Positions 12,082 through 48,226 are shown, counted from the first letter of the stretch. The stretch is 64,000 nt of DNA from Escherichia coli (GCF_044324875.1 NZ_CP172185.1); one strand, 5' to 3'. Notes: generated by a model not told the origin, from the sequence alone. Translations and numbers: made by a program.

Positions 12082-12157
12082 GCCCGGATAGCTCAGTCGG
12101 TAGAGCAGGGGATTGAAAATCCCCGTGTCCTTGGTTCGATTCCGAGTCCGGGCACCA
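12082..12157 (+). tRNA. pheU: tRNA-Phe (anticodon GAA)
   Basis: GCCCGGATAGCTCAGTCGGTAGAGCAGGGGATTGAAAATCCCCGTGTCCTTGGTTCGATTCCGAGTCCGGGCACCA; cloverleaf with GAA anticodon loop; pheU assigned from yjdC neighbourhood (sequence identical to pheV). Confidence 0.95.
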
Positions 12158-12168
12158 AATTCATATAA

Positions 12169-12195
12169 ACGGACCTCCACGGAGGTCCGTTTTTC
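12169..12195 (+). terminator. Hairpin plus T-run after tRNA-Phe
   Basis: GGACCTCCAC/GGAGGTCC inverted repeat followed by TTTTT. Confidence 0.5.
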
Positions 12196-12354
12196 GTTTC
12201 AGGACGCCACGATTTAAGCGTCCTGCCGCCAAATCAATTCTACCGAACTCAACCAGACTCCCCCCACATCAACCCCATTGTGTGGGTATAATTGCGGGTA
12301 TACCCCAGTTCGACAGAATTTGTACCCTCTTTAACGCATTCAGAAGGCTGAACT

Positions 12355-13617
12355 ATGGCACTGACTGACGCAAAAATCCGGGCTGCAAAGCACACTGACA
12401 AGGCTTATAAACTCACTGACGGGGCTGGCATGTTCCTGCTGGTACATCCTAATGGTTCCCGTTACTGGCGTCTCCGTTATCGCATTCTGGGTAAGGAGAA
12501 AACTCTGGCACTTGGTGTATACCCGGAGGTTTCTCTCTCCGAAGCTCGTACAAAACGGGATGAGGCCCGAAAACTGATTTCGGAGGGGATTGACCCTTGC
12601 GAACAGAAAAGAGCTAAAAAAGTAGTCCCTGATTTACAACTCTCTTTTGAACATATTGCACGACGCTGGCATGCCAGTAATAAACAATGGGCACAATCAC
12701 ACAGCGATAAGGTACTCAAAAGCCTCGAAACACACGTTTTCCCCTTTATCGGCAACCGGAACATCACAACACTCAATACCCCGGACCTGCTTATCCCTGT
12801 TCGTGCTGCAGAAGCTAAACAAATTTATGAAATCGCCAGTCGTCTGCAGCAAAGAATATCTGCTGTAATGCGTTATGCCGTACAGTCTGGCATCATCAGA
12901 TATAATCCTGCTCTGGATATGGCTGGCGCATTGACCTCTGTAAAACGACAGCATCGCCCCGCTCTTGATCTTTCACGTCTGCCTGAACTTCTGTCGCGTA
13001 TTAACAGTTATAAAGGTCAGCCTGTCACCCGGCTTGCTGTTATGCTGAATTTACTGGTTTTTATTCGCTCCAGTGAACTCAGATATGCCCGCTGGGCTGA
13101 AATTGATATTGACAATTCAATGTGGACTATTCCAGCCGAACGCAAACCTCTGCCAGGGGTAAAATTCTCACACCGGGGCTCCAAGATGCGAACACCACAT
13201 CTTGTGCCACTCAGCAAACAGGCTGTAGCCATACTGACAGAACTTCAGACATGGGCTGGTGAAAATGGTCTGATCTTTACGGGAGCACATGACCCGCGTA
13301 AACCAATCAGTGAAAATACCGTAAATAAGGCCCTCAGAGTGATGGGGTATGACACAACCAAGGAAGTCTGTGGCCATGGATTCCGGGCGATGGCGTGCAG
13401 TGCATTGATTGAATCAGGTTTGTGGTCCCGCGATGCTGTGGAACGTCAGATGAGCCATCAGGAGCGTAATGGTGTACGTGCTGCGTATATCCATAAAGCA
13501 GAACATCTGGAAGAACGTCGACTGATGCTACAGTGGTGGGCAGATTTTCTGGATGCGAACAGAGATAAGGGTATCAGCCCGTTTGAATATGCAAAGATTA
13601 ACAATCCATTAAAATAG
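12355..13617 (+). CDS. int: P4-type tyrosine integrase (island integrase adjacent to tRNA-Phe)
   Basis: 420 aa; MALTDAKIRAAKHTDKAYKLTDGAGMFLLVHPNGSRYWRLRYRILGKEKTLALGVYPEVSLSEARTKRDEARKL typical of P4-like integrase N-terminus; C-terminal catalytic region with HGFRA; located ~200 bp after tRNA. Confidence 0.9.
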   Translation: MALTDAKIRAAKHTDKAYKLTDGAGMFLLVHPNGSRYWRLRYRILGKEKTLALGVYPEVSLSEARTKRDEARKLISEGIDPCEQKRAKKVVPDLQLSFEHIARRWHASNKQWAQSHSDKVLKSLETHVFPFIGNRNITTLNTPDLLIPVRAAEAKQIYEIASRLQQRISAVMRYAVQSGIIRYNPALDMAGALTSVKRQHRPALDLSRLPELLSRINSYKGQPVTRLAVMLNLLVFIRSSELRYARWAEIDIDNSMWTIPAERKPLPGVKFSHRGSKMRTPHLVPLSKQAVAILTELQTWAGENGLIFTGAHDPRKPISENTVNKALRVMGYDTTKEVCGHGFRAMACSALIESGLWSRDAVERQMSHQERNGVRAAYIHKAEHLEERRLMLQWWADFLDANRDKGISPFEYAKINNPLK

Positions 13618-14068: not shown

Positions 14069-17000
14069 ATGGATGAAAATGCTTTAGGGTTTGCCTCATA
14101 CTGGCGCAACTCGCTTGCGGACGCTGAGTCAGGAAAGGGCAGTTTTGAACGGAAAGACGCCAAAAATTTCACTCACTGGCATGGGATAGCGGCGGGACGT
14201 CTTGACGAAGCGATTGTCAGTAAATTTTTTAAGGGAGAAAAAGACGATGTCGAAACGGTCGATGTCATCTTGCGCCCAAAAGTTTATTTCCGGTTACTGC
14301 AGCATGGTAAGGACCGTTCTGCAGGTGCGCCTGATATTGTTACCCCGATAGTGACGCCAGCCTTGCTAAGCCGTGAGGGTTTTTTATATCCGACGCCAGC
14401 GACCTCCATTCCCAGAGACCTGCTTGAACCTTTGCCAAAAGGAGCATTTTCGATTGGTGAGATTGGGCAGTATGACAAATACAAGACGACCCATACCACG
14501 TTCTCTATCAACTTTGATGACAGCGTTGATAAGACTGCCGAAACGGATGAAGAACGGGAAGAACGATATGCAGCCTTGCAGCAGGAGTGGCGTCAATATC
14601 TGGATGATTCAGAGAGGCTGCTGAAGAACGTTGCCGGCGACTGGATTAAAAATCCTGAGCAATATGAACTCGCTGAGCACGGTTATATTGTTAAAACGGC
14701 GCAATCTGGCGGTGCCAGTTTCCATATCCTTTCTCTTTATGATCACCTGCTTGTTTGCAATAAGGATGTGCCGCTCTTCAATCGATTCGCCTCGCGAGAG
14801 GTTCATGCTGCAGAGTCTTTGCTGGCCCCTGGAGCAAAATTCAGCGACAGGCTTGGACACTCCGGAGATAAGTTTCCGCTGGCAAAGGCTCAGCGCGATG
14901 CCTTAAGCCATTTTCTGGATGCTAAACATGGCGATATCCTTGCTGTTAATGGCCCTCCTGGAACCGGAAAAACCACGCTGGTGCTTTCTATCATCGCCAC
15001 GCAGTGGGCCAGAGCGGCTCTCGAAAAATCTGAGCCTCCGGTTATTATCGCGACTTCAACGAATAACCAGGCTGTAACGAACATTATTGAGGCATTCGGG
15101 AAAGACTTTTCGCAAGGTTCAGGTGCGATGGCCGGGCGATGGTTGCCAGAGCTGAAAAGCTTCGGCGCTTATTTTCCCTCAGGCAGCCGTAAAGCTGAAG
15201 CAGCCAAAAAATATCAAACTGAAGATTTCTTCAACCAGGTTGAGTCAAAAGAGTATGTAGAAGATGCACTGCTGTTTTATCTGGAAAAGGCTAAGGCAGC
15301 CTTTCCTGAAAAAGAGTGTTCATCCCCTGAAAAGGTCATTGAACTCCTGCATGGTCAGTTGGCAGCAAAATCCGAGCAACTGATAAGACTGAACGCAACA
15401 TGGCAAAAGTTAAGCCAGATTCGGGCTGCGCGTGAGCTTATTGCTAATGATATTGAGCAATATCTCAATAATTTAAATAAATTACTTTCCGGACAAGAAC
15501 AAAAAATCACTCTACTGAAGAGTGCTAAAACGGAATGGAAAAAATATCGCGCCGGTGAATCACTGATCTATTCATTATTTTCCTGGCTTCCGGCGGTTCG
15601 CAGTAAGCGACAGTACCAAATACAGCTGTTTCTCGAAGATAAATTAGGTGCGCTGATTGCAGGAAATCAATGGTCTGATCCTGAAACTATCGAACGTAAT
15701 ATTGATGGGCTGCTCAATTCCGCTGAGCGCGAGCAAACAACATACCGGCAGCAGATTGACTCCGCCCATGAAATCATTCTTAAAGAACAGCAGGCGGTTC
15801 AGGAGTGGCAGAGACTGGCTCTTGATTTAGGGTATGAGGGCGACGAGGAACTGAGCTTCTCACAGGCCGATGAACTGGCTGATACGCAGATTCGCTTCCC
15901 TGCATTTTTACTGACGACTCACTACTGGGAAGGTCGTTGGCTGATGGATATGGCCAGCATTGATGATCTGCAGGAAGAGAAGAAGAAAAAAGGCGCTAAA
16001 GGGGTAACCGCCCGTTGGCAACGTCGAATGAAACTCACTCCATGTGTGGTGATGACATGCTATATGCTGCCCGGCAATATGCAGATAAGTGAGCACAAAG
16101 GACAGCGTAAATTCGAGAAAAGTTATTTGTATGATTTTGCCGATTTACTCATTGTCGATGAAGCCGGGCAGGTGCTTCCTGAAGTGGCTGCTGCCTCGTT
16201 TGCATTAGCTAAGAAGGCATTAGTGATTGGCGATACGGAGCAGATCCCGCCAATATGGAGTATTGCTCCTGCGATTGATATCGGTAACATGCTGGCGGAA
16301 AAAATTCTGTCTGGCAGTACGCAAGAAGAGATTACCGAGAAATATACGGCAATCGCAGACCTTGGTAAAAGTGCCGCATCTGGCAGCGTTATGAAAATAG
16401 CGCAGTTTGCTTCGCGCTATCAATATGATCCCGAACTGGCTCGTGGTATGTACCTATATGAACACCGCCGGTGCTACGACAATATTATTGGATACTGTAA
16501 TACGCTCTGCTATCACGGTAAGTTGTTGCCTAAAAGAGGGCGTGAAGAGAGCAATTTAATGCCCGCAATGGGGTATCTCCATATTGATGGTAAAGGAGAG
16601 CTGGCAAGTAGTGGAAGTCGATATAATTTGCTTGAGGCTGAAACGATAGCGGTCTGGTTGGCAGAGAACCAGCAAAATATTGAAGCGCATTACGGTAAAT
16701 CGCTTCATGAAGTTGTCGGTATTGTGACGCCTTTTAGCGCTCAGGTATCCACTATCAAACAGGTGCTGGGCAAACAAGGTATCAGTACAGGCACGAATGA
16801 AAAGTCGCTCACAGTGGGCACCGTGCACTCTCTTCAGGGAGCGGAAAGAGCGATTGTGATATTCTCGCCAGTCTATTCAAAACATGAAGACGGCGGGTTT
16901 ATTGATAGCGATAACAGCATGCTGAATGTTGCAGTCTCCCGTGCGAAGGACAGTTTTCTGGTCTTCGGCGATATGGACCTGTTTGAGGTCCAGCCAGCCT

Positions 17001-17584
17001 CATCGCCACGGGGATTACTGGCAAAATACCTCTTTGAGTCAGAGAAGAATGCGCTCTCTTTTGATTATAAAGAGCGTAAGGATTTAAAAACCGCCGGGAC
17101 CAAAATCTACACACTTCATGGTGTGGAGCAACATGATAATTTCCTGAATCAGACATTTGAAAATACCAGTAAACACATCACGATAGTTTCTCCATGGCTG
17201 ACCTGGCAAAGGCTGGAGCAAACCGGTTTTCTTGATTCCATGATTGCGGCGTGTTCACGTGGAATTAACGTCACGATAGTCACTGACAGAAGCTACAACA
17301 CTGAACATAATGATTTTGAGAAGCGAAAAGAGAAGCAGCAGAACTTTAAAGCGGCGCTGGAGAAACTGAATGCGCTGGGTATTGCTACAAAGCTGGTAAA
17401 CCGTGTTCATAGCAAAATTGTTATTGGTGATGATGGTTTGCTGTGCGTGGGATCGTTCAACTGGTTTAGTGCGACACGGGAAGCGCGATATGAACGATAC
17501 GATACATCAATGGTTTATTGCGGTGATAACCTGAAGGGTGAGATTGAGGCTATTTATAATAGTCTTGAGAGGCGGCAGGTTTAG
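14069..17584 (+). CDS. Large fusion protein: unknown N-terminal domain + Upf1-like SF1 helicase core + C-terminal PLD-family (single HKD) nuclease domain; candidate defence protein
   Basis: 1171 aa; Walker A GPPGTGKT (~aa 295), Walker B/motif [11 protein letters not shown] (~aa 695), motif V-like [11 protein letters not shown], motif VI-like VAVSRAKD, then HSKIVIGDD (HxK(x)4D) near aa 1114; first cargo gene after island integrase. Confidence 0.9.
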
Positions 17585-17692: not shown

Positions 17693-19192
17693 TTATCTTC
17701 TGCCCGGAAGAATCAGAGGCTGTGGTTTCAGACTGTCTGCCGGTACATTCCTGTCTCCGTTAAAAACAATAACGGGTTCATTATCTTCGTCTGTCAGCGG
17801 ATTGAATGGCGGTATATTTTCAGTACGAATGCCGGTCAGCCACTGAAAAATACCTGCGAAATGACGGGCACTGATTTTTCTGCTGACGGACTGATGAGAC
17901 GTGATGTCACTGGCGGTAATAATCAGGGGAACGCTGTAGCCTCCTTGTATATGGCCATCATGATGAACAGGATTAGCACTGTCGCTGACCGACAGACCAT
18001 GGTCAGAAAAGTAAAGCATGGCAAAATGACGGGAGTGCCGGCGAAGGATACCATCAAGCTGACCGAGAAAGTTATCCAGTTTACTGATGCTGGCGAGGTA
18101 ACAGGCAATCTTTCGGGGATACTGCTCCAGGTAATGATTCGGCCAGGAGTTAAGTCGGTCACACGGATTCGGATGAGAGCCAATCATGTGCAGGAATATC
18201 ACCTTCGGAGAGGATTTATCCGCCAGTGCACGTTCTGTTTCCTGTAACAACAACATGTCATCCGTTTTACGGGAAGCAAAGCTGCCTTTCTTGAGGAAAA
18301 CGGTATGCTCCGCATCAGAAGCAATAACAGAGATGCGTGTATCATGCTCCCCCAGTTTTCCCTGATTGGATATCCACCATGTGCTGTATCCTGCTTTTGC
18401 TGCCAGCGCCACCACGTTGTTGCCGGAGTCAGGGTTCTGCTCATAGTCATAAATCAGTGTCCGGCTCAGGGAAGGTACGGTACTGGCTGCTGCCGATGTA
18501 TAGCCGTCAATAAATAAACCGGGAGCCGTATTCAGCCATGGTGTGGTTGGCACGGGATAGCCATATACCGACATATAATCCCTGCGCACACTCTCACCAG
18601 TAACGATAACAATCGTGTCATACAACGGTGTTCCCGGCAGGATTTTCCAGTTGTCAGCCCCGTGCTGACTCAGTTGTTTATAACGCTGCATTTCACGCAA
18701 TGTGTCAGTTGTTCCCACAACAATTCCTTTAACCATCCGCAACGGCCAGCTGTTTACAGAGCATAATACGAACAGCAGCAGTGCCAGCCAGTTACGGTGA
18801 CCGCGGTGGTGTGTCCGCCAGAAAATCACCATGAATACCAGAATCGCGGCACTGACCAGAAAATGATAAACAGGAATCATCCCGGTAAACTCTGCAGCCT
18901 CATCAGCCGTGGTCTGCAGCAACGCGACAATAAAACTGTTGTTGATTTTACCGTACGTCATACCCGCAGGCGCATACAGTGCACAACAGAACAGAAATAA
19001 CAGCGTTGTAATGGATGTGAGGGTATTTCTGTGTGCAAGGAGCAGAAGGAGAAACAGAAGCAGCACATTTCCTGTGGCATTCTTCTCAGTGTATCCGCAT
19101 GCAATTGTGGTTATCACAGAAATAACAAAAAAGAATAAAAACAATAAAATCCGGGGTGTGTCGCCCGGACAAAACAGTTTTCTGATATTCAT
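17693..19192 (-). CDS. Sulfatase-family integral membrane enzyme (phosphoethanolamine-transferase-like)
   Basis: 499 aa; hydrophobic N-terminal TM region followed by soluble domain with HMIGSHPNPCDRL-type motif typical of alkaline-phosphatase/sulfatase superfamily transferases. Confidence 0.55.
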   Translation of the reverse strand: MNIRKLFCPGDTPRILLFLFFFVISVITTIACGYTEKNATGNVLLLFLLLLLAHRNTLTSITTLLFLFCCALYAPAGMTYGKINNSFIVALLQTTADEAAEFTGMIPVYHFLVSAAILVFMVIFWRTHHRGHRNWLALLLFVLCSVNSWPLRMVKGIVVGTTDTLREMQRYKQLSQHGADNWKILPGTPLYDTIVIVTGESVRRDYMSVYGYPVPTTPWLNTAPGLFIDGYTSAAASTVPSLSRTLIYDYEQNPDSGNNVVALAAKAGYSTWWISNQGKLGEHDTRISVIASDAEHTVFLKKGSFASRKTDDMLLLQETERALADKSSPKVIFLHMIGSHPNPCDRLNSWPNHYLEQYPRKIACYLASISKLDNFLGQLDGILRRHSRHFAMLYFSDHGLSVSDSANPVHHDGHIQGGYSVPLIITASDITSHQSVSRKISARHFAGIFQWLTGIRTENIPPFNPLTDEDNEPVIVFNGDRNVPADSLKPQPLILPGRR

Positions 19193-19373
19193 CGGAGTAT
19201 ATCGACAACATTATTATGAAGAGAACAGGATAATAAAAATCAGAAATTATCTGTAAAACAGATAACAGACAACCCTGCAGCAATAGACTGCAGGGTGTTT
19301 CTGTTTAATTGCAGAAGATATACAATTATATTAATTACAGAATATTCGTGATTATCTCTCGGGAACAGTGTTG

Positions 19374-20114
19374 TCAGAAGTTATAAGTCACACCAAGCAT
19401 GATGTCATGACTTTTAACATCAACTTCTGACTTATATTTATCGCCCCACTCGTCCTTGTAACTCACACTGCTGTCACCTGCATCAAGATAGCGATAGCTG
19501 AGGTCCAGAGCGATATCCGGGGTTACGTCATAGCGGACACCCGCGCCAAGGTTCCATGCGAAGTTGTCAGCAGAGCCTGAACGTGACAACGATTCGCGAC
19601 CACTGCTTCCGTACTCATAATCCCAGGTACTGATACCGGTTGTTTTCTGGTGAATTCTGGCGTAGCCAATCCCTGCAGATATCCAAGGTGTGAATGCGCT
19701 GTCATTCCGGAAGTCATAGTACGCATTCAGCATTAGTGTGTTGACTGACACCTCATTCTTCAGGTCATCACGCCAGTAACCACCTGACCAACTGTCTTTA
19801 TCTACGTTATACTTCGAATCAGCTTTTCCACGAGCGTAAAACTCCAGTTCTGTACGAACCGGAATACTGAACTGCGGATAAAAATCATAACCAGCCGCGA
19901 TACCACCACTGAATACCGTATCATGGTCATCGCCGCCTTTATACTTTGACGTTTCTTCCTCATCTCCTGACAGGAAACGCTGGTCTGAAAGTGACACCAC
20001 AGAGGTACCGGCTTTACCGGTCAGATAAAAACCGCTTTTACCTTCCTCAGCACCTGCATTTGCTGCAAATACACAGGCTGCGGCCACCACTGAAACAGCA
20101 AAAACCTTTTTCAT
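19374..20114 (-). CDS. Outer-membrane beta-barrel protein (OmpA-like transmembrane barrel family)
   Basis: 246 aa; signal peptide MKKVFAVSVVAAACVFAANA; alternating aromatic/hydrophobic strands; C-terminal ...GVTYNF terminal Phe. Confidence 0.6.
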   Translation of the reverse strand: MKKVFAVSVVAAACVFAANAGAEEGKSGFYLTGKAGTSVVSLSDQRFLSGDEEETSKYKGGDDHDTVFSGGIAAGYDFYPQFSIPVRTELEFYARGKADSKYNVDKDSWSGGYWRDDLKNEVSVNTLMLNAYYDFRNDSAFTPWISAGIGYARIHQKTTGISTWDYEYGSSGRESLSRSGSADNFAWNLGAGVRYDVTPDIALDLSYRYLDAGDSSVSYKDEWGDKYKSEVDVKSHDIMLGVTYNF

Positions 20115-38411: not shown

Positions 38412-39050
38412 TCAGTCTGTGGGGCGCAGCCGGGCCTTCAGCTCTTCGGGGGTAAACGGCGGATCTCGCCGGTGCAGCATCGCATGGCAGTTGGGACATA
38501 CCGGGATCAGATCGGTTTCAGGGTTCAGGCGGTAGTCCTGCTTTATCCCGGCCAGCGGGATGAGATGGTGGATATGGATAAAGCCCTGGCCGATATCGCC
38601 ATAGCGGCTGGCCATATCCAGACCGCATACCTGACACTGGCAGCCATGCAGGCGAAGCGCCGCCTGACGAGCCTGACGGTCGCGCTCATAGCGATTGACC
38701 ACCACCTGCAACGCCGCCCCTTCCACGTACTCCATGGTCGTCTGCCCCTCATCGGGGAAAAGCGCAACCTCGTCATCGCCAGCGCCCTGCGACGCGATCG
38801 TAAATCCTTGCTCCAGTAACAGACGCACGCATTTTGATTTAATCCCCCCGCTGAAATCCGCCGGGGTAAATTCCGTTCCCGTCGCAAGCGTGGCCGCTAA
38901 CCCGACGATGGCTTTTGAAGGATACCGACGCCCCTCAAACTCGATCTCATACAGACGCGCGCTTTTAAACTGATGCGCAACGCCTGCATCGTAAGCGCGA
39001 ATGGCGGCGATGATGCATTCCCTGGATAAATGGTCCGGTAGTTTTTTCAT
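38412..39050 (-). CDS. HNH-family endonuclease with unassigned ~110-aa N-terminal domain
   Basis: 212 aa; C-terminal CQVCG...HIHHLIPLA...NPETDLIPVCPNCHAMLHRR HNH/zinc-finger core. Confidence 0.7.
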   Translation of the reverse strand: MKKLPDHLSRECIIAAIRAYDAGVAHQFKSARLYEIEFEGRRYPSKAIVGLAATLATGTEFTPADFSGGIKSKCVRLLLEQGFTIASQGAGDDEVALFPDEGQTTMEYVEGAALQVVVNRYERDRQARQAALRLHGCQCQVCGLDMASRYGDIGQGFIHIHHLIPLAGIKQDYRLNPETDLIPVCPNCHAMLHRRDPPFTPEELKARLRPTD

Positions 39051-39229
39051 AAGACATAGCTATCTGATGGCGCGAAGCTTGAGTATAAATAGAAAGCTAT
39101 GGTCTTTTCGAACAAATAACTGGCAGTGATAATTAAATCGCGATCCACGTAGAATCGCCGCATCTGGTAGGTTGATCGGCAAGGATTTTGCGAGCATCAT
39201 CGCATTTATTTAGCTGCCAATGTAACGCT

Positions 39230-40099
39230 ATGCCCTCCAGCACGACCCTGCAACACGCGATCGAGAACATCACCATCTGGCGCAAAGGCGAACAGCGTGC
39301 GCCGCATAAACCACTATTGCTGCTGTACGTCCTCTCGCAATACCAGCGCGGCCATGCGCGGATGTTCGACTACGCCTCGGAGATACGTGATGAGCTGCAT
39401 AGCCTGCTGGAACGCTTTGGCCCGCAGCGCCGCCAGTACCGGCCGGACATGCCCTTCTGGCGCCTGAAAGGCGACGGCTTCTGGGAGCTACACAACAGCG
39501 AACAGTGCTCAACCCAGGGCAGCCGACAGCCGCCCGGCAAAGAGCTGGAGCTCTGCCACGTCGCCGGCGGCTTTGATGAGCAGCATTTTGCGTTACTTAA
39601 CAGAAATAAGAAGCTGATCAATACCCTCGCCCATCAGATCCTCGAGGCGCACTTTCCGGAGAGTATTCAGGAAGAACTGGCTGAAGAGATGGGGTTTGAT
39701 CTGCTGCAGATCCGCAAAGAGCGCGACCCGCATTTTCGCCAGCAGGTGCTGCGCGCCTATAACTATGAGTGCGCTATCTGCGGCTTCAATATGCGCCATG
39801 ATAATACCTCCGTCGCCCTGGAAGCGGCCCATATCAAGTGGAAGCAGCACGGCGGCCCCTGCGAAATCCCTAACGGCCTGGCGCTCTGCGCGATTCACCA
39901 TAAGGCTTTTGATAAAGGATCCATTGGTCTGGATGAGGATATGCGCATCCAGGTTTCGCCGGCGGTGAACGGCGGAGGCATCGTTGGCAGGTTGTTCTGG
40001 GATTTTGATGGTAAGCCGATTACCTTGCCGATGGGGAAAGAATGCTATCCCCAGGAGGGGTTTGTGGCGTGGCACCGGCGGGAGGTGTTCAGGGGATGA
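39230..40099 (+). CDS. HNH-family endonuclease with unassigned ~190-aa N-terminal domain (candidate modification-dependent restriction enzyme)
   Basis: ORF 39188..40099; YNYECAICGF...AAHIKWKQHGGP...NGLALCAIHHKAFDKG HNH core; divergent from the neighbouring HNH gene. Confidence 0.7.
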   Translation: MPSSTTLQHAIENITIWRKGEQRAPHKPLLLLYVLSQYQRGHARMFDYASEIRDELHSLLERFGPQRRQYRPDMPFWRLKGDGFWELHNSEQCSTQGSRQPPGKELELCHVAGGFDEQHFALLNRNKKLINTLAHQILEAHFPESIQEELAEEMGFDLLQIRKERDPHFRQQVLRAYNYECAICGFNMRHDNTSVALEAAHIKWKQHGGPCEIPNGLALCAIHHKAFDKGSIGLDEDMRIQVSPAVNGGGIVGRLFWDFDGKPITLPMGKECYPQEGFVAWHRREVFRG

Positions 40100-41301
40100 G
40101 GGGGATGGTGATAAGCGGGTTTCGATGTTGAGCGTAGGGTTTAGGGATTGGGACTGTGTTTCGGAGAGGATTTCGTGGTTGATCAATGATTGGTCGTGGC
40201 TAGGTTAAAGGACTTATTTATTGATTGTTTTGATATTGATGCGAAGGCCTGACTCAAACATGCGATTTAACCTCATGATTTAAAATTGTTAATAATAAAC
40301 AACACCATCCTATACCAACACAGATACCAACACGAAAAATCACTGGTTTTCGGCATCGAACCAGGACAATCAGGTCCTGATTGAGATACCGAGCTCTGTT
40401 ACTCGTCATCTGCCTCGACAGGCTCCATTGCATCAAGTGGTACTCGCACCATCGCGATAGATCCAATCCGGATAAAAGCATCTTCCCCATCTATATCGGT
40501 TAACTGATATCGCTCACTTGATGCCGGATAATTGTGTCGATTGGCAACAGTGTACTCTTTCGTACAGCCAGAATGTGGCAGACTGAGGTGGAATAGATAA
40601 CGTCCGTATGCCCGCTGACCACCTCCGGGCGGGAGAGTGTGGTATCTGACATCATCATTTTTCCTTTTGGTTTATAAACGAAAACGCCAGCCGTATTCAG
40701 GCTGGCGTCAGGGTAATGAAGCGTGGTGAGTGATATTCACCGGTTCTGGTGCAGAAGCTGCAGATGACGCAGGGTACGGACATCCTCTCTGGCCTGTTCG
40801 ATACAGGGCAACAGTGCTGCCGATGTCAGTAGGCTATTTCCGGTTGATATACCCTGCCCGTAAATTACAGGGCAGGAATAGTATTATTAATTTCGGGAGA
40901 AGCTTAAGGTTGCCACATCGACAGTTTCATCACACAGGTTTTTGTCCTGAAATACTTTCTTATTTTTGACTTTAGCTAGCCATTGCCCGACATGAAGGGA
41001 GGGTACAGTGATGATACCGTCCTCATTACTTACAAAGGTAAGTTCTGCTTTATGAGCCGAATGTTTATGCTCTGCCGCATGAGTATGGCGGGATGATTTC
41101 AGATAACTGACAGAGTCAAGCTCCAGAGTGGCTCCGGCAAGCGGGGAAGTTTTATACAGAACTTTCAGCTTCACATCTTCACCGAAACGACTGATATCGG
41201 ATAACGGAATTAGACTGGCCCCCTGAATCTCCAGACAACCAGTATCACTTAAATAAGTGATAGTCTTAATACTAGTTTTTAGACTAGTCATTGGAGAACA
41301 G

Positions 41302-41667
41302 ATGATTGATGTCTTAGGGCCGGAGAAACGCAGACGGCGTACCACACAGGAAAAGATCGCAATTGTTCAGCAGAGCTTTGAACCGGGGATGACGGTCTCC
41401 CTCGTTGCCCGGCAACATGGTGTAGCAGCCAGCCAGTTATTTCTCTGGCGTAAGCAATACCAGGAAGGAAGTCTTACTGCTGTCGCCGCCGGAGAACAGG
41501 TTGTTCCTGCCTCTGAACTTGCTGCCGCCATGAAGCAGATTAAAGAACTCCAGCGCCTGCTCGGCAAGAAAACGATGGAAAATGAACTCCTCAAAGAAGC
41601 CGTTGAATATGGACGGGCAAAAAAGTGGATAGCGCACGCGCCCTTATTGCCCGGGGATGGGGAGTAA
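41302..41667 (+). CDS. insC: IS2 OrfA (InsC)
   Basis: [56 protein letters not shown]. Confidence 0.9.
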
Positions 41668-42530
41668 GCTTAGTCAGCCGTTGTCTCCGGGTGTCGCGTG
41701 CGCAGTTGCACGTCATTCTCAGACGAACCGATGACTGGATGGATGGCCGCCGCAGTCGTCACACTGATGATACGGATGTGCTTCTCCGTATACACCATGT
41801 TATCGGAGAGCTGCCAACGTATGGTTATCGTCGGGTATGGGCGCTGCTTCGCAGACAGGCAGAACTTGATGGTATGCCTGCGATCAATGCCAAACGTGTT
41901 TACCGGATCATGCGCCAGAATGCGCTGTTGCTTGAGCGAAAACCTGCTGTACCGCCATCGAAACGGGCACATACAGGCAGAGTGGCTGTGAAAGAAAGTA
42001 ATCAGCGATGGTGCTCTGACGGGTTCGAGTTCCGCTGTGATAACGGAGAAAAACTGCGAGTCACGTTCGCGCTGGACTGCTGTGACCGTGAGGCACTGCA
42101 CTGGGCGGTCACTACGGGCGGCTTCAACAGTGAAACAGTACAGGACGTCATGCTGGGAGCGGTGGAACGCCGCTTCGGCAACGAGCTTCCGGCGTCTCCA
42201 GTAGAGTGGCTGACGGATAATGGTTCATGCTACCGGGCTAATGAAACACGGCAGTTTGCCCGGATGTTGGGGCTTGAACCGAAGAGCACGGCGGTGCGGA
42301 GTCCGGAGAGTAACGGCATAGCAGAGAGCTTCGTGAAAACGATAAAGCGTGACTACATCAGTGTCATGCCCAAACCAGACGGGTTAACGGCAGCAAAGAA
42401 CCTTGCAGAGGCGTTCGAGCATTATAACGAATGGCATCCGCATAGTGCACTGGGTTATCGCTCGCCACGGGAATATCTACGGCAGCAAGCCAGTAATGGG
42501 TTAAGTGATAACAGGTGTCTGGAAATATAG
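41625..42530 (+). CDS. insD: IS2 OrfB (InsD) transposase, expressed by frameshift fusion with OrfA
   Basis: 301 aa, DDE integrase core; overlaps orfA in -1 frame. Confidence 0.9.
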
Positions 42531-43032
42531 GGGCAAATCCAGGAATGATTTCAAGCTCATCCCCTATTGGATACTGATAGAGTTGTGCTGGCATCTGCTG
42601 TTCACCAGGAATAAAAGATTTTGCATATTTAGTCACAAACTCACAGTATGCCACATCATTTCTGCCCTCCCGGCTGACAGGCTTCCATCCTGACGAGGTT
42701 CTCGACCAGTATCCCGGTTTCATTTTCGTTGACAGAACGTAGCTATTACCGTTGCCTGCAGTCTCAATTTTATAGACATAATCCGTGGATGTTGGCTTCA
42801 GCGTTATTGTCTCTTTCCCGTTATAAAGCCGGGGAGTTTCAAAGAAATCCCTTCTGTCAGGAATCGTGCCCTTTGAGGGGAAATTATGACCATAACCAAT
42901 CTCTGCGATAACGTTGTTCTCTGCCTGTTTGCCGGTAATCCAGACATCATGGGCCAGGACATGCCCCGATGCTGTCAGACAAAGAGCTAAGATATAGCCT
43001 GTATTTTTCATCATGATTTATTTCCTGAGAGG

Positions 43033-45003
43033 TTACCACTGATAACGGGTATAAAGACTGACAGTTCGGCCTGAAAGCGGCACACCTTTGCCATTCATGG
43101 CAAGCTTGTTGAAGGCATTATCCAGAGTTACTGACGCCTCAAAGCCTTTAACACTTACAGGCTTATAAGACAGTGAAAAGGAATGTATGGCATAGCCAGC
43201 CTGATAGGAGTCGCCTTTTTTCACATGCGTGGCTGATGCTGAAAGTTCAGCACGCCATCCGGCATAAACGCCTCTATGACCAACAGGTATGCTGATGTCA
43301 CTGATAAGTGTGTCAGGATTGCCGGAGCCCAGCCATTCCCTGCTGCTGGCATCCATACTTTCCGTCCGGTTATAAGAAAGCACCCAGTCAACATAATCAG
43401 ACTGGTAATTTCCCTGCATATCCCATCCCCAGATACGGGCCCGGGATACATTATAAGAATAAGAACGCATCCGTTTCATATCCACGCGTGTGGCAATATA
43501 GTTTCTGGCATCCGTTCCGAAATATCCGCCTTTTAACTGCAGCCGGTCATTGTCTGTAAGCAGGCCATCCAGTTGAATACCTGCGCCAATCTCACGGGTG
43601 ATGTTATTTTCTGGTTTCAGATTAAGGTTAGGAACCCAGTAATTGGGTTTACCCTTGCGGTAAAAATGTACATCATCCCTGTACATTTCTGCCATTGTGG
43701 GCGCTCGGAATGCAGAGGATATGGAGCCGTACATCATCAGCCAGTCTGTCGGTGAGACTGAAATCGCCGCCCTTGGGGACAGGCGTTCGGCTTTCAGTTC
43801 TCCGGCACGGGGATTGAAGCTCTTGTACCGGTCATAGCGGGAACCGACGATAATGTTAACAGGGTAGCTTTTCATTGTCATTTCATCCTGGAAATACAAC
43901 GATGTAAAGTCAATATTTCCTTCCGGATATAGTGTGGCAGAGCCTTCTGGCTTCTGCTGCTGACGGTAATATTCAGCGCCATAACTTAACTGATGGGCTC
44001 CCGGAAAAATCAGAGTATGACTCCTGTTGACAACATTAACACCGGAGGTTCTGTTGTTTCTCCATTCTGCCGTTTTGTTGTGACCGTTTGTCTTGATAGT
44101 GATATCACTGAGATATAACGTTGACTGTACATTGATGAGGCTGTTATCCACAGGAGCGTACTGGTACCAGAACTGTACGTCATTTTGTACTGTTTTTCTG
44201 TCACGCAGGCCGCTGTCACCATGTGTCTGAGTGGGATTGCCCGGTTCAGTGGTGTTATTCCGGTAGAGACGCAAGCTGGCACCTGCTTTGTTACTGTCTG
44301 TTATACCGACAGAGCCTTTCGCAAACAGGGCTGCAGGTTTTTCCTTGTTAGGTGCGCGCTCACCATCACTTTGATAGATATTACCTCTTTTACGCATAAT
44401 GACAGAAAGGAGCGCATCTGTTTTTCCGGTTTTACCGAACCAGGTGAGCCCCGAGCCTGTGCTGTGGTCACCACTGGCAATATTTCCCCACAGACTTAAA
44501 CCGTTTGTCTCTCCGGGGGGAAGGAAATCTGCTGCATCGGCAGTTCTGAAGTCCACTACACCTCCCAGCCCGCCACTGCCGTACAGACTGGAGTTTGGCC
44601 CGCGGACAACTTCGATACGTTTGACAAGAGCCGGATCCAGATAAGTGCCACTGCTTTTTGCCATGTCACTAAGTTGGCGGACGCCGTCAACAAGAACAAG
44701 TACCCCGCTTTTGTCATAGCCGCGTAGATTAAAGGTCTGCCCATTGGTCCGTCCTGCACCAGTCTGGCTGAGACCGGCAACACCTTTCAGCATGCCGGCC
44801 GATGTAACCGCATTCTGACTCCACGGTGTGTCATTCGTGACGACACTGACCATCGACGGCGTTTCAAATACCGTGTTCTGATTTCCTGTCGCGACAATGG
44901 TGATTGTATCTTTAGCCATAGAAGAATGACTGGTCGCTGCCTGTAGTCCCACCGGGACTATAATTAATGTACAAATGACAGTTCTGATTACATTCATATA
45001 CAT
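43033..45003 (-). CDS. TonB-dependent outer-membrane receptor
   Basis: 656 aa; signal peptide; plug-domain TonB-box-like region DTITIVATGNQ; C-terminal ...TRYQW terminal aromatic. Confidence 0.8.
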   Translation of the reverse strand: MYMNVIRTVICTLIIVPVGLQAATSHSSMAKDTITIVATGNQNTVFETPSMVSVVTNDTPWSQNAVTSAGMLKGVAGLSQTGAGRTNGQTFNLRGYDKSGVLVLVDGVRQLSDMAKSSGTYLDPALVKRIEVVRGPNSSLYGSGGLGGVVDFRTADAADFLPPGETNGLSLWGNIASGDHSTGSGLTWFGKTGKTDALLSVIMRKRGNIYQSDGERAPNKEKPAALFAKGSVGITDSNKAGASLRLYRNNTTEPGNPTQTHGDSGLRDRKTVQNDVQFWYQYAPVDNSLINVQSTLYLSDITIKTNGHNKTAEWRNNRTSGVNVVNRSHTLIFPGAHQLSYGAEYYRQQQKPEGSATLYPEGNIDFTSLYFQDEMTMKSYPVNIIVGSRYDRYKSFNPRAGELKAERLSPRAAISVSPTDWLMMYGSISSAFRAPTMAEMYRDDVHFYRKGKPNYWVPNLNLKPENNITREIGAGIQLDGLLTDNDRLQLKGGYFGTDARNYIATRVDMKRMRSYSYNVSRARIWGWDMQGNYQSDYVDWVLSYNRTESMDASSREWLGSGNPDTLISDISIPVGHRGVYAGWRAELSASATHVKKGDSYQAGYAIHSFSLSYKPVSVKGFEASVTLDNAFNKLAMNGKGVPLSGRTVSLYTRYQW

Positions 45004-45129
45004 TCATATACATCCGAAAACATATGTCGGTATTAAAATGTTATAACATAACATTTTATTTATGCAACTCTGATTATGTAGCGTTCAGTGATGAACTGTT
45101 AATAATATTCTGTCGATCCGCTAAGTGTC

Positions 45130-45778
45130 AGTGTATGCGGTAAGCCTGCCCTTGAGTCACTGTTTGGCAACTGCTACATCTAAGGTGACGTTATCCGCTG
45201 ACATCGATATTCCCGTGGTGAGAGATAACCTAACGCACTATGCGGGTGGTTCTCATTGTAATTCTCGAACGCCTATGCAAGGTTATGCAATGCCGTTATT
45301 ACATTCGGTTTCTGTATGAACGCAATGTAGTCTTCCTTCATCGTTTTCACTAACCTTTCTGCCATTCCATTACTCTGAGAGCTGCTGATTGCCGTTGTGC
45401 AGGGCTCCAGATCCAACTCTCTGGCGAACTGCCGTGTTTCATGCGCTCTATACGCTGAACCGTTATCTGTCAACCACCGGATGGACTGTTCCGGTACTTT
45501 ATCGCCAAAGAGTTTTTCTATCGCTCCTAACATCACATCCTGCACTGTCGCTTTATTGTAACCTCCCGTATTGGATGCCCAGTCGATAGCTTCACGATCG
45601 CAACAGTCCAGAGCGAACGTAACCCGGACTTTTTCGCCATCATCGCAACCGAACTCAAAGCCATCAGAACATCAACGCTGGTCGCTTTCCTTACCGATAT
45701 TCGGCCTTTATGTTCCCGCTGCGGTCGTGATGGTTTGTCATGTAACAACAGGATATTTTCGCTCATTATCCGGTAAAC
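45130..45778 (-). mobile_element. IS2-like (IS3-family) orfB remnant, separated from its orfA part by IS66 copy 2
   Basis: ...[76 protein letters not shown]... parallels IS2 InsD; frame breaks present. Confidence 0.6.
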
Positions 45779-45809
45779 GGTAAGCGTCAACGGAGCACCG
45801 TATTGACGC

Positions 45810-47423
45810 TTATTTATTGGTGAGTACTACGTTCCATGGCAGGAGTTCATCAACTCGGTTGGAAGGCCATTCCGGCAGTACGCTCAGGATATGGCGCAGA
45901 TACGCTTCCGGATCGATACCGTTCAGACGGCAGGTGCCGATCAGCCCGTACAACAGTGCTCCACGCTCGCCGCCGTGATCGCTGCCAAAGAACATAAAGT
46001 TTTTCTTTCCGAGACAGACTGCACGAAGCGCTCTTTCCGCAGCATTATTATCCGCCTCCGCCAGACCGTCATCACTGTAATAACAGAGGGCATCCCACTG
46101 ATTCAGTACATAGCTGAACGCTTCGCCCAGTCTGGATTTTTTCGACAGCGTACCATTCTTCTCCACCATCCATTCATGCAGCGACGTCAGTAACACTTTG
46201 CTTCGCTGCTGCCTGACGGCAAGACGCTCTGACTCCGCTAATCCCCGTATTTCATCCTCGATGGCGTACAGTTCACTGATTCGCTTCAGGGCTTCTTCTG
46301 CCGTCGCACTTTTGCTGCTGATGTATACATCGTGGATTTTTCGCCGGGCATGGGCCCAGCACGCAACTTCTGTCAGTGCACCACCTTCACGTTCTGCACT
46401 GAACAACCTGTCGTAACCTGTGAACGCATCCGCCTGCAGGATACCCCGGAAGGGGCGGAGGTGTTGCTCCGGGTGTTTCCCCTGCCGGTTCGGCGAGTAC
46501 GCGAACCAGACCGCTGGAGGAGATGACGAACCCACATTGCGATCATCCCGGACATACGTCCAGATACGCCCTGTTTTCGCCTTTTTCTGACCCGGTGCCA
46601 GTACCTTTACCGGTGTGTCATCAGTGTGAACCTTGCGGGTGTTCATTACATAACGGTACAGGGCATCATTCACCGGTGTCATTAACTGGCAGCACGCGTC
46701 AACCCAGTTGGAGAGTAAGGCCCGGCTCAGTTCGACACCCTGGCGGGCAAAGATTTCACTCTGACGATACAGTGGCAGATGTTCGCAGTATTTTCCCGTT
46801 AACACGCGGGCAAGTAATCCGGGGCCCGCGATACCACGCTCTATCGGGCGGGACGACGCCGGTGCTTCAACAATACAGTCACATTTTGTACAGGCTTTTT
46901 TTACCCGTTCTGTGCGGATCACTTTCAGGGCACTGCTCACCAGTTCCAGCTGTTCAGCGCTGACTTCCCCCAGATAATCCAGCTCACCGCCACACTCCGG
47001 GCAACAGCTTTCTTCTGGCTCCAGGCGGTGTATTTCACGGGGAAGGTGTGCCGGTAACGGACGACGATGGCGCGACTGTCGCAACTGGCGGGGAACCTGA
47101 GGATCGTCTTCCCGCCCACTGTAACGATCGCTGTCCTGTTCACGTTGTTTCAGCAGAGCCTCAGCCAGTTCAACTTCACGACGCAGTTTTTCAGAACGGG
47201 GACCGAACAGCATCCGGAGCAGTTTTTCTATCTGAGCCCGCAGATGTTCTATTTCCCGTTCATCTTCTTCGATCTTTTCTTCGGCACGTGTCAGTGCAGA
47301 GCGCAGGAAGGCTTCCCTCTCTTCAACCAGACTCAGTTGCTGGTCTTTCTGACGGAGGGCTTCAGCCTGCTCAGAGAGCAATCTTTCCAGCTCTGCGATG
47401 CGAATGAGGTATTTCTGACTCAT
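45810..47423 (-). CDS. tnpC: IS66-family transposase TnpC (copy 2)
   Basis: 537 aa; colinear with copy 1 TnpC but diverged. Confidence 0.85.
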   Translation of the reverse strand: MSQKYLIRIAELERLLSEQAEALRQKDQQLSLVEEREAFLRSALTRAEEKIEEDEREIEHLRAQIEKLLRMLFGPRSEKLRREVELAEALLKQREQDSDRYSGREDDPQVPRQLRQSRHRRPLPAHLPREIHRLEPEESCCPECGGELDYLGEVSAEQLELVSSALKVIRTERVKKACTKCDCIVEAPASSRPIERGIAGPGLLARVLTGKYCEHLPLYRQSEIFARQGVELSRALLSNWVDACCQLMTPVNDALYRYVMNTRKVHTDDTPVKVLAPGQKKAKTGRIWTYVRDDRNVGSSSPPAVWFAYSPNRQGKHPEQHLRPFRGILQADAFTGYDRLFSAEREGGALTEVACWAHARRKIHDVYISSKSATAEEALKRISELYAIEDEIRGLAESERLAVRQQRSKVLLTSLHEWMVEKNGTLSKKSRLGEAFSYVLNQWDALCYYSDDGLAEADNNAAERALRAVCLGKKNFMFFGSDHGGERGALLYGLIGTCRLNGIDPEAYLRHILSVLPEWPSNRVDELLPWNVVLTNK

Positions 47424-47453
47424 GACCGTTTTTATAATGCGGTCAGGAGTTTT

Positions 47454-47804
47454 TTACAACATTGTCAGTGAGTTACGGCTGGATGTTTTTGGCTGACGCC
47501 AGTCCAGCTTATCGAGGAGCATTGCCAGTTGCGAGCGGGTAATGGATACCTTGCCGTCACGTACCGCAGGCCAGATAAACTGGCCTTCCTCCAGGCGTTT
47601 GGTGAACAGGCACAGACCATCAGCATCAGCCCAAAGAATTTTGACGGTGTCACCCCGTCGGCCACGGAAGATAAACAGGTGACCGGAGAAGGGATTATCA
47701 TTCAGCACATGTTGTACCTGTTCTCCCAGTCCGTTGAAGGATTTACGCATATCGGTAACGCCGGCAACGAGCCAGATACGGGTACCTGATGGGAGTGAGA
47801 TCAT
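47454..47804 (-). CDS. tnpB: IS66 Orf2 (TnpB, copy 2)
   Basis: 116 aa; MISLPSGTRIWLVAGVTDMRKSFNGLGEQVQ. Confidence 0.85.
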   Translation of the reverse strand: MISLPSGTRIWLVAGVTDMRKSFNGLGEQVQHVLNDNPFSGHLFIFRGRRGDTVKILWADADGLCLFTKRLEEGQFIWPAVRDGKVSITRSQLAMLLDKLDWRQPKTSSRNSLTML

Positions 47805-48226
47805 CTTCCCCTCCCGGTCAGTTCACGGATCAACACCGTGAGCAGCTCTGGCGATGGATTTTCCAGCGTCATGTTACCGTGACGGAATTCCACCTTGCAG
47901 GAACTGGCACTGACTCTGGTCTGAGTGGAAGTGGATAAAGACGGCGCAATGGCCGCCACAGGTTCTTTCTGCTCATCCGGCGTTATTTCTACAGGTAATA
48001 ATTCAACGCCAGTGTCAGAAGAGGTCGTTACCGGAAGACGCCGCGAAACACGCCCTTCGTTCTGCCAGAGCCTGAGCCATTTGAAAATAACATTATCATT
48101 GACGCCATTTTCACGTGCAATCTGTGCAACACAAGCTCCAGGTTGTGATGCCAGTTCCACCATACGAAGTTTGAATTCATTCGAATAGTTTTTACGAGGT
48201 TCTTTTCGCCAGTCCTGTAATTCCAT
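47801..48226 (-). CDS. tnpA: IS66 Orf1 (TnpA, copy 2)
   Basis: 141 aa; overlaps tnpB start. Confidence 0.8.
   Translation of the reverse strand: MELQDWRKEPRKNYSNEFKLRMVELASQPGACVAQIARENGVNDNVIFKWLRLWQNEGRVSRRLPVTTSSDTGVELLPVEITPDEQKEPVAAIAPSLSTSTQTRVSASSCKVEFRHGNMTLENPSPELLTVLIRELTGRGR

Follow-up and report, generated by a model that had tools for sequence, protein, structure and literature searches.

An IS2 insertion in the DUF4198 gene of a receptor operon with a predicted Zur box on an Escherichia coli genomic island

Within the protein family DUF4198, Zcp (NGO1049) was the first member to be characterised; it captures zinc in the periplasm of Neisseria gonorrhoeae and is regulated by Zur (PMC12663993; PDB 9MHI-9MHO). 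Both Zcp and IsDUF4198 of Ideonella were characterised only in 2025 (PMC12663993, PMC12537917). A signal peptide followed by a mature N-terminal histidine occurs in 79% of the family (PMC12537917). DUF4198 proteins of E. coli are not discussed in the paper on Zcp (PMC12663993). The gene described here lies in a stretch of 64,000 nucleotides from Escherichia coli (GCF_044324875.1, NZ_CP172185.1; the whole stretch is called the window throughout). The gene is the second of an operon that starts with the intact gene for a TonB-dependent receptor, and it is interrupted by a complete copy of the insertion sequence (IS) IS2. Its product shares with Zcp the Pfam family, the two-domain fold, a signal peptide, a conserved pair of cysteines and a Zur box before the transcription unit; it differs by an internal His-rich loop and by having a TonB-dependent receptor as operon partner, whereas zcp is monocistronic.

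The receptor also has described relatives. The heme receptors ChuA and ShuA coordinate heme by His86 in the plug and His420 in the FRAP/NPNL loop, and ChuA is encoded in the Fur-regulated chu locus. The receptor of the window shares the plug, the 22-strand barrel, the TonB box, the FRAP box and the equivalent of His420 with ChuA and ShuA (PDB 9DHE, 3FHH), but carries Lys at the position of plug His86 and NLNL instead of NPNL. Compared to ChuA, this paralogue is preceded by a Zur box rather than a Fur box and is accompanied by a DUF4198 partner instead of chuSTUWXY. Extraintestinal E. coli encode another accessory TonB-dependent receptor on a genomic island, namely Hma (c2482), the second heme receptor of the uropathogenic strain CFT073. 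Identity of our receptor with Hma was rejected, because the cobU-adjacent receptor of CFT073 consists of 715 amino acids, is monocistronic and shows 29% identity over 164 plug residues only. ZnuD/TdfJ of Neisseria and ZnuD of Acinetobacter are zinc receptors regulated by Zur and, like the receptor of the window, TonB-dependent receptors behind a Zur box of the E. coli-type consensus (PMC2895646). Both ZnuD and the window receptor resemble heme receptors, but the latter is not a ZnuD orthologue and its transport of zinc is only predicted. Finally, the same pairing of a DUF4198 protein with a heme-type TonB-dependent receptor is found in Caulobacter (CC2193/CC2194; PMC3751524), where it is regulated by Fur and iron, whereas the enterobacterial pair has a Zur box and no Fur box.

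As the explanation of the locus that we favour, and that we regard as highly probable, IS2 recently caused a loss-of-function hit on the partner gene in a Zur-regulated, zinc-serving uptake operon. A single IS2 entered codon 158 of the second gene of the operon, located in the pheU island, by simple insertion with a 5-bp duplication. The operon codes for an outer-membrane TonB-dependent receptor, a paralogue of ChuA, followed by a periplasmic metal-binding protein of the DUF4198 family, behind a predicted Zur operator; Zur would repress it at zinc sufficiency, and zinc starvation would induce it. The receptor would then bring zinc, or a ligand that carries it, through the outer membrane, and in the periplasm the metal would be captured by the DUF4198 protein, as it is by Zcp. 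The hit by IS2 would remove the periplasmic partner and leave the receptor to be made.

The IS2 insertion and the restored DUF4198 gene

A first-pass annotation had described an IS2 with a GGAAT duplication in a DUF4198-like gene downstream of a TonB-dependent receptor gene and had placed it at 40887-45003, a span that runs exactly from the stop codon of the DUF4198 gene to the start codon of the receptor gene. We found a complete element in the orientation opposite to the interrupted operon (Table 1). By direct reading, its left end starts with TAGACTGGCCCCC / TAGACTGGCCCCCTGAATC and its right end finishes with GGGGCAAATCCA / ATAGGGGCAAATCCA. The 1331 bp from TAGACTGGCC to GGGGCAAATCCA agree in length and termini with an IS2 of about 1.33 kb, and a repeat finder placed the arms of the terminal inverted repeats at 41220-41252 and 42501-42533. 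The element is flanked on both sides by a perfect copy of GGAAT, with GATATCGGATAACGGAATTAGACTGGCCCCCTGAATC and ATATAGGGGCAAATCCAGGAATGATTTCAAGCTCATC as junction strings; the chance of a 5-bp match at a fixed position is about 1/1024. Both reading frames scored above the cut-offs of the respective NCBIfam models, orfA with 276 bits against IS2 TnpA (cut-off 229) and orfB with 713 bits against IS2 TnpB (cut-off 597), and the A6G motif for the programmed -1 frameshift is present at 41619-41625. The element is 96-98% identical to four other IS2 copies of 1331 bp from other strains. Length, canonical termini, orfA/orfB with A6G and the 5-bp duplication are the same as in known cases of insertional inactivation by IS2 in E. 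coli, and the insertion shows nothing unusual apart from its site. The event is an ordinary new instance of IS2 insertional inactivation.

To be restored, the interrupted gene only needed the removal of IS2 and one copy of GGAAT. This excision in silico joined 40887-41210 to 42547-43014 and yielded one continuous open reading frame (ORF) of 263 amino acids on the minus strand, close to the approximately 260 that had been anticipated. The restored ORF matched the Pfam model DUF4198 (PF10670) over profile positions 2-208 of 209 with an E-value of 7.9e-25 and 88.7 bits (gathering cut-off 34 bits), which bears out the assignment to this family. A protein with exactly this translation occurs on 787 public contigs, and the restored DNA is identical at 792 of 792 positions (100%) to the intact gene of strain ECCNB12-2. 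Because the excision gives a known intact protein and allele, the two fragments clearly belong to one gene. In the interrupted state, the native reading continues through the adjacent GGAAT copy to Pro158 and is followed by 58 foreign codons encoded by IS2.

The frequency of the insertion was assessed with 5426 complete E. coli genomes and, for plasmids, with PLSDB. The DUF4198 gene was present in 1143 of the genomes, at 764 plasmid and 422 chromosomal places; of 1169 records carrying it, 1153 had it in one piece over 80% or more of the length (about 98.6% full length). This survey also provided the comparison with strains lacking the insertion: the empty site, searched with a 300-bp query, was uninterrupted in 1137 genomes, some copies being 100% identical. 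The left junction of IS2 occurred in 0 of the 5426 genomes and the right junction had no true match among them. Its sole apparent match, strain 1517k, was rejected as a sharer of the junction, since it carries a different insertion: the IS2 of 1517k lies 211 bp nearer to the stop codon, in the same orientation, with AAGGG as target-site duplication (TSD), and ISEc12 is also present further upstream in the DUF4198 gene. The junction was likewise absent from all PLSDB plasmids, and an exact look-up of the 216-amino-acid fusion ORF returned nothing on record. Because the duplications are identical, the restored sequence shows no divergence from intact alleles and the junctions are unshared, the insertion is, as judged from these sequence comparisons, recent and private to its lineage, in line with the earlier description of the gene as recently inactivated.

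The module of receptor and DUF4198 genes lies in IS-rich DNA and has been struck repeatedly by independent IS insertions. In strain 1517k (L002, 4707-11885), the DUF4198 gene contains the IS2 with TSD AAGGG together with a nested ISEc12/IS3 cluster, and in strain MS20658 (L007, 9001-10331), an IS2 with TSD GATAC splits a CobW-family gene downstream of the receptor-DUF4198 pair. Both of these other IS2 insertions in the module are thus likewise flanked by 5-bp duplications, AAGGG and GATAC.

In the predicted structure (see below), the cut after residue 158 falls on the junction of the two beta-sandwich domains (strand 154-158). The truncated product loses domain 2, the His-rich loop and Cys249, which is one of the conserved pair of cysteines, and gains 58 residues encoded by IS2. 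Because of these losses and the foreign residues added, the product is very likely null or unstable. Expression of the receptor should be unaffected, since its gene lies upstream of IS2 with promoter region and Zur box intact. The locus had been called an inactivated uptake system at first; this is correct for the accessory DUF4198 gene, which is lost, but overstated for the system, because receptor, promoter region and regulatory site are untouched. Beyond the 3' fragment, the sequence offers nothing more than a short GC-rich inverted repeat found by inspection (40853-40859 / 40870-40876) and fragments annotated as pseudogenes in relatives. Because no functional gene follows downstream, we infer that the insertion has no polar or activating effect.

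Zur box, receptor and fold of the DUF4198 protein

Regulatory sites for Fur or NikR had been proposed as something to look for upstream of the receptor gene, but neither was found there, and the region contains a Zur box instead. Over the 300 bp preceding the receptor gene, the best match to a Fur box was 11/19, a value reached 360 times in the window and thus at chance level, and the NikR operator GTATGA-N16-TCATAC did not occur anywhere in the 64 kb. Compared to the Zur consensus sequences taken from the literature (PMC4219657, PMC2895646), the predicted Zur box shows three mismatches to the 23-bp proteobacterial consensus GAAATGTTATANTATAACATTTC and one mismatch to the structure-based E. 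coli 20-mer pattern TGWNAYRWTATAWYRTNWCA, including the central TATA by which Zur sites differ from Fur sites (PMC4219657). No second site of this kind occurs in the window, and no match to the 23-bp consensus arose when the whole window was shuffled 100 times with its dinucleotides preserved. The box lies just downstream of the -10 hexamer of the best sigma-70-like promoter.

Three other E. coli alleles have the Zur box at an unchanged position, and six other loci contain it as well (Table 1). In the orthologous pairs it is located 21-31 bp before the start codon, and the flanking sequences are otherwise unrelated. This phylogenetic footprint favours a predicted control of the operon by Zur. 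Because the regulatory site is a Zur box, zinc rather than iron or nickel is indicated as the metal served by the operon. A literature search for a TonB receptor under Zur control in E. coli or on pUTI89-type plasmids found none.

Two further observations concern the alleles of this region. At the receptor start, 10 bp are duplicated in tandem (ATGTATATGA in sense orientation; 45004-45013 and 44994-45003), which widens the distance between the Zur box and the ATG from 21 to 31 bp; the upstream copy of the ATG is out of frame. It occurs in the window and in ECCNB12-2, and is not present in LR-33, pVR50B and MS20658. The allele of E. coli JCM 5491 is chromosomal and lies near a tRNA-Arg gene and the iro cluster; here, a gene for a CobW-family GTPase of 399 amino acids (Pfam cobW, CobW_C; L008, 5538-6737) comes after the pair.

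The receptor gene is intact, as had been noted initially: its exact protein is found on 298 contigs, and it aligns with ChuA from end to end with 42% identity over the full length. Searches against the sequences of the ChuA and ShuA crystal structures gave E-values of about 1e-166. The protein scored 413.5 bits against the heme/hemoglobin receptor model TIGR01785 (cut-off 316.85), and the Pfam domains Plug and TonB_dep_Rec_b-barrel are present. Because its stop codon precedes the start of the DUF4198 gene by 18 bp on the same strand, the two genes form one operon.

An AlphaFold (AF2) model of the restored DUF4198 protein was obtained with a pLDDT of 91.2 and a pTM of 0.88. Its best fold matches in the PDB were zinc-bound Zcp (9MHL; TM 0.74-0.84) and nickel-bound IsDUF4198 of Ideonella (9GCB), with Foldseek E-values of 3e-19 to 9MHI/9MHL and 4e-11 to 9GCB. 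By sequence, it matched Zcp with an E-value of 2.7e-22 and 24% identity. On the basis of the modelled fold, the protein is a structural homologue of gonococcal Zcp. Candidate metal ligands were assessed from an alignment of 73 homologues, which was built by an exhaustive HMMER search, as a word-indexed search returned close relatives only. His22 is conserved in 72 of the 73 sequences, His43 in 65, Cys124 in 64 and Cys249 in 65. As judged by inspection, the signal peptide is predicted to be cleaved at VLA|HD (...GHVLA|HDVW), which would turn His22 into the mature N-terminus. The His-rich loop, SSRHTHAAEHKHSAHK in this protein, is specific to the enterobacterial subfamily and is richer still in Salmonella and Providencia.

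Table 1. Features of the interrupted operon, its Zur box and the neighbouring mobile elements (positions in the window)
Feature	Position	Strand	Remarks
Complete IS2 (IS3 family)	41211-42541	+	1331 bp, left inverted repeat (IRL) left, right inverted repeat (IRR) right; ends read directly from the sequence
TSD, left copy GGAAT	41206-41210		directly outside IS2
TSD, right copy GGAAT	42542-42546		directly outside IS2
IS2 orfA	41302-41667	+	121 amino acids, HTH_Tnp_1, full length
IS2 orfB	41625-42530	+	301 amino acids, rve integrase core, full length
DUF4198 gene, 5' part	42547-43014	-	codons 1-156; signal peptide, His22, His43, Cys124
DUF4198 gene, 3' part	40887-41210	-	codons 157-263 and stop; second beta-sandwich domain, His-rich loop, Cys249
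Fusion ORF	42364-43014	-	216 amino acids; DUF4198 residues to Pro158 and 58 IS2 codons
TonB-dependent receptor, intact	43033-45003	-	656 amino acids; ChuA/ShuA paralogue, TIGR01785 subfamily
Predicted Zur box	45034-45058		sense strand AAAATGTTATGTTATAACATTTT; 31 bp upstream of receptor ATG
Best sigma-70-like promoter upstream of receptor	45073-45102	-	TTAACA-18-CATAAT; consensus match only
Zur box, E. coli JCM 5491 chromosomal allele			0 mismatches to 20-mer
Zur box, E. coli pVR50B and MS20658 alleles			core kept
Zur box, Salmonella enterica, orthologous receptor-DUF4198 pair			2 mismatches in 23
Zur box, Providencia rettgeri, orthologous pair			1 mismatch in 20
Zur box, Klebsiella plasmid, orthologous pair			1 mismatch in 20
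Zur box, metagenome contig, pair after ZnuA-type ABC transporter			0 mismatches
Zur box, two solitary subfamily members, no receptor alongside			2 mismatches
Module left boundary	40823-40824		63 bp past DUF4198 stop; different island segment to the left
IS3-family remnant, not IS2	45142-45800 (ends approximate)	-	about 71% similar to IS2 orfB; annotated as pseudogene in relatives
Complete IS66-family unit	45810-48226		tnpA 47801-48226, tnpB 47454-47804, tnpC 45810-47423

Alternative explanations

Several observations weigh against a zinc-serving operon whose partner protein has lost its function. The Zur box is itself a prediction from sequence. The receptor belongs to the heme/hemoglobin subfamily by sequence and keeps the FRAP-box histidine, so heme or another ligand is possible, and it reached only 46.7 bits against the NCBIfam model for ZnuD (NF038289; cut-off 950), matching in the plug only. 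The zinc ligands of Zcp, H29, H31 and H142 as named in the title of entry 9MHK, correspond to Q30, E32 and E138 in the E. coli protein. In the CobW-family GTPase that some E. coli encode after the pair, the CxCC motif typical of zinc-linked COG0523 proteins is missing, the DUF4198 gene beside a hemin receptor in Caulobacter is regulated by Fur and iron (PMC3751524), and the 216-amino-acid product of the interrupted gene retains the entire N-terminal domain with His22 and His43, which leaves a small chance of residual function. We rejected a transfer of the zinc site and metal specificity of Zcp, as the three ligand histidines are not conserved; by sequence, the protein appears in a Zcp-like setting, yet it is not a cluster-1 Zcp orthologue. 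The CobW/COG0523 neighbour was given little weight as evidence for zinc, since it is without CxCC and absent from the window.

The same observations on receptor and Caulobacter genes support an operon for iron or heme uptake, in which the ChuA-like receptor would import heme, the DUF4198 protein would be an iron or heme accessory and the damage done by IS2 would concern a secondary heme pathway. The receptor scores above the TIGR01785 cut-off and is similar to ChuA over its full length, and in pRS218 the annotation of the plasmid copy is that of a heme/hemoglobin receptor in an iron-acquisition region (PMC4155114). We consider this explanation unlikely, because the upstream region offers a Zur box with the central TATA, kept across genera, and nothing better than a chance match to Fur, because the plug histidine of ChuA is replaced by Lys and because one related pair adjoins a ZnuA-type transporter. 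A resemblance to heme receptors does not contradict zinc transport either, as the heme-receptor-like TonB-dependent receptor ZnuD is known to carry zinc (PMC2895646). Nickel or cobalt uptake under the control of NikR is suggested by IsDUF4198, which binds nickel with a Kd of 18 nM, by the occurrence of NikR and TonB-dependent receptors in gene neighbourhoods of the family (PMC12537917) and by the similarity of the AlphaFold model to 9GCB. As the window has a Zur box but no NikR operator, and nik and cbi genes are missing nearby, there is hardly any probability left for it.

The two remaining alternatives concern what IS2 does to the operon. IS2 has historically been known to affect neighbouring genes, and the element might act by a change of expression, with an outward or hybrid promoter activating a neighbour or antisense RNA lowering the receptor. 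Transcription of the transposase genes on the plus strand would indeed run antisense into the 5' part of the DUF4198 gene and the receptor gene, and it is conceivable that an antisense transcript starting in IS2 reaches the latter. To the left of IS2, there are only the 3' gene fragment, the hairpin and pseudogene fragments, and everything to the right is antisense. A promoter scan predicted no hybrid promoter at the IS2 ends, 41211 or 42541; by inspection, the best -35-like sequence in IRR, TGGAAA, would have to pair with GAATGA as -10. The altered expression by outward promoters that the first-pass annotation had offered as an option is therefore unsupported, as IS2 lies antisense to the operon with no gene downstream and no predicted hybrid promoter, and we consider an effect of this kind very improbable. 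It is also very improbable that the insertion is near-neutral because the truncated product still functions, its N-terminal domain being exported and binding metal through His22 and His43. The cut at the boundary of two predicted domains and the retention of the two most conserved candidate ligands speak for it. On the other side, Cys124 has lost its partner Cys249, the second domain and the His-rich loop are missing and 58 unrelated residues have been gained; the share of full-length genes among natural copies (about 98.6%) further suggests that the whole protein is needed. The loss-of-function hit on the partner of a Zur-regulated, zinc-serving receptor thus remains the explanation that we favour.

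Island setting and significance of the cassette

The left end of the window contains dcuA, dsbD and a tRNA-Phe (GAA) gene, followed by the gene for a P4-type tyrosine integrase (12082-13617). Because of the tRNA-Phe (GAA) and P4-type integrase genes with dcuA and dsbD to their left, most of the window is a mosaic genomic island, which we take to be the pheU island from the gene order of strain K-12. In every context examined, remains of IS elements border the receptor-DUF4198 module. An IS3-family remnant lies directly upstream of the promoter region of the receptor gene and reads toward it (Table 1). At the left boundary, 40823/40824, the module adjoins a segment with xylose, GH43 and restriction genes. 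In strains such as ES1, this left-hand sequence ends, within one base, at the left end of an IS2 without target duplication (CCGAA / CTGAA flanks), and the junction of the window was found in no complete genome. This suggests a deletion or rearrangement mediated by an IS2 end, which left no IS behind and lies 387 bp from the present IS2.

Further genes were noted in the island. Just inside it, an ORF of 1171 amino acids (14069-17584) combines a superfamily-1 helicase (AAA_11/AAA_12) with a C-terminal PLD-like nuclease and looks like a defence-type helicase-nuclease. It is followed at 17693-20114 by genes for an EptA-like phosphoethanolamine transferase (499 amino acids) and a small beta-barrel outer-membrane protein, both of which are present at the same island position in LR-33. 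Two divergent HNH-endonuclease genes lie at 38412-40099, one of which is annotated as a phosphorothioated-DNA-binding restriction endonuclease in relatives.

The insertion itself is an everyday event in an island rich in IS elements and relevant only to the phenotype of the strain. What is new is that an uncharacterised, heme-annotated cassette is placed by its predicted operator under Zur and not under Fur or NikR; we found no paper describing this for E. coli. To our knowledge, no Zur-regulated outer-membrane zinc importer has been characterised in E. coli. It is a tentative possibility that the cassette fills this gap and gives E. coli and other Enterobacterales a way for zinc through the outer membrane under Zur control, with a ChuA-derived receptor re-purposed for zinc or a zinc-loaded ligand and coupled to a DUF4198 capture protein with a His-rich loop. 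If so, the window would show a naturally occurring loss of the periplasmic partner, with an intact receptor beside it. Complete E. coli genomes carry the cassette in about 21% of cases, mostly on F-type virulence or resistance plasmids and on pheU/pheV-type islands, and the pair of a ChuA-like receptor with a DUF4198 protein is common on plasmids and islands of extraintestinal E. coli, where it is annotated as heme/hemoglobin receptor and assumed to be iron-related. Strains with an intact receptor and a broken partner would provide natural material to separate the two functions. If the Zur prediction is true, the annotation and the assumed role in nutritional immunity of this widespread plasmid cargo would shift from iron to zinc.

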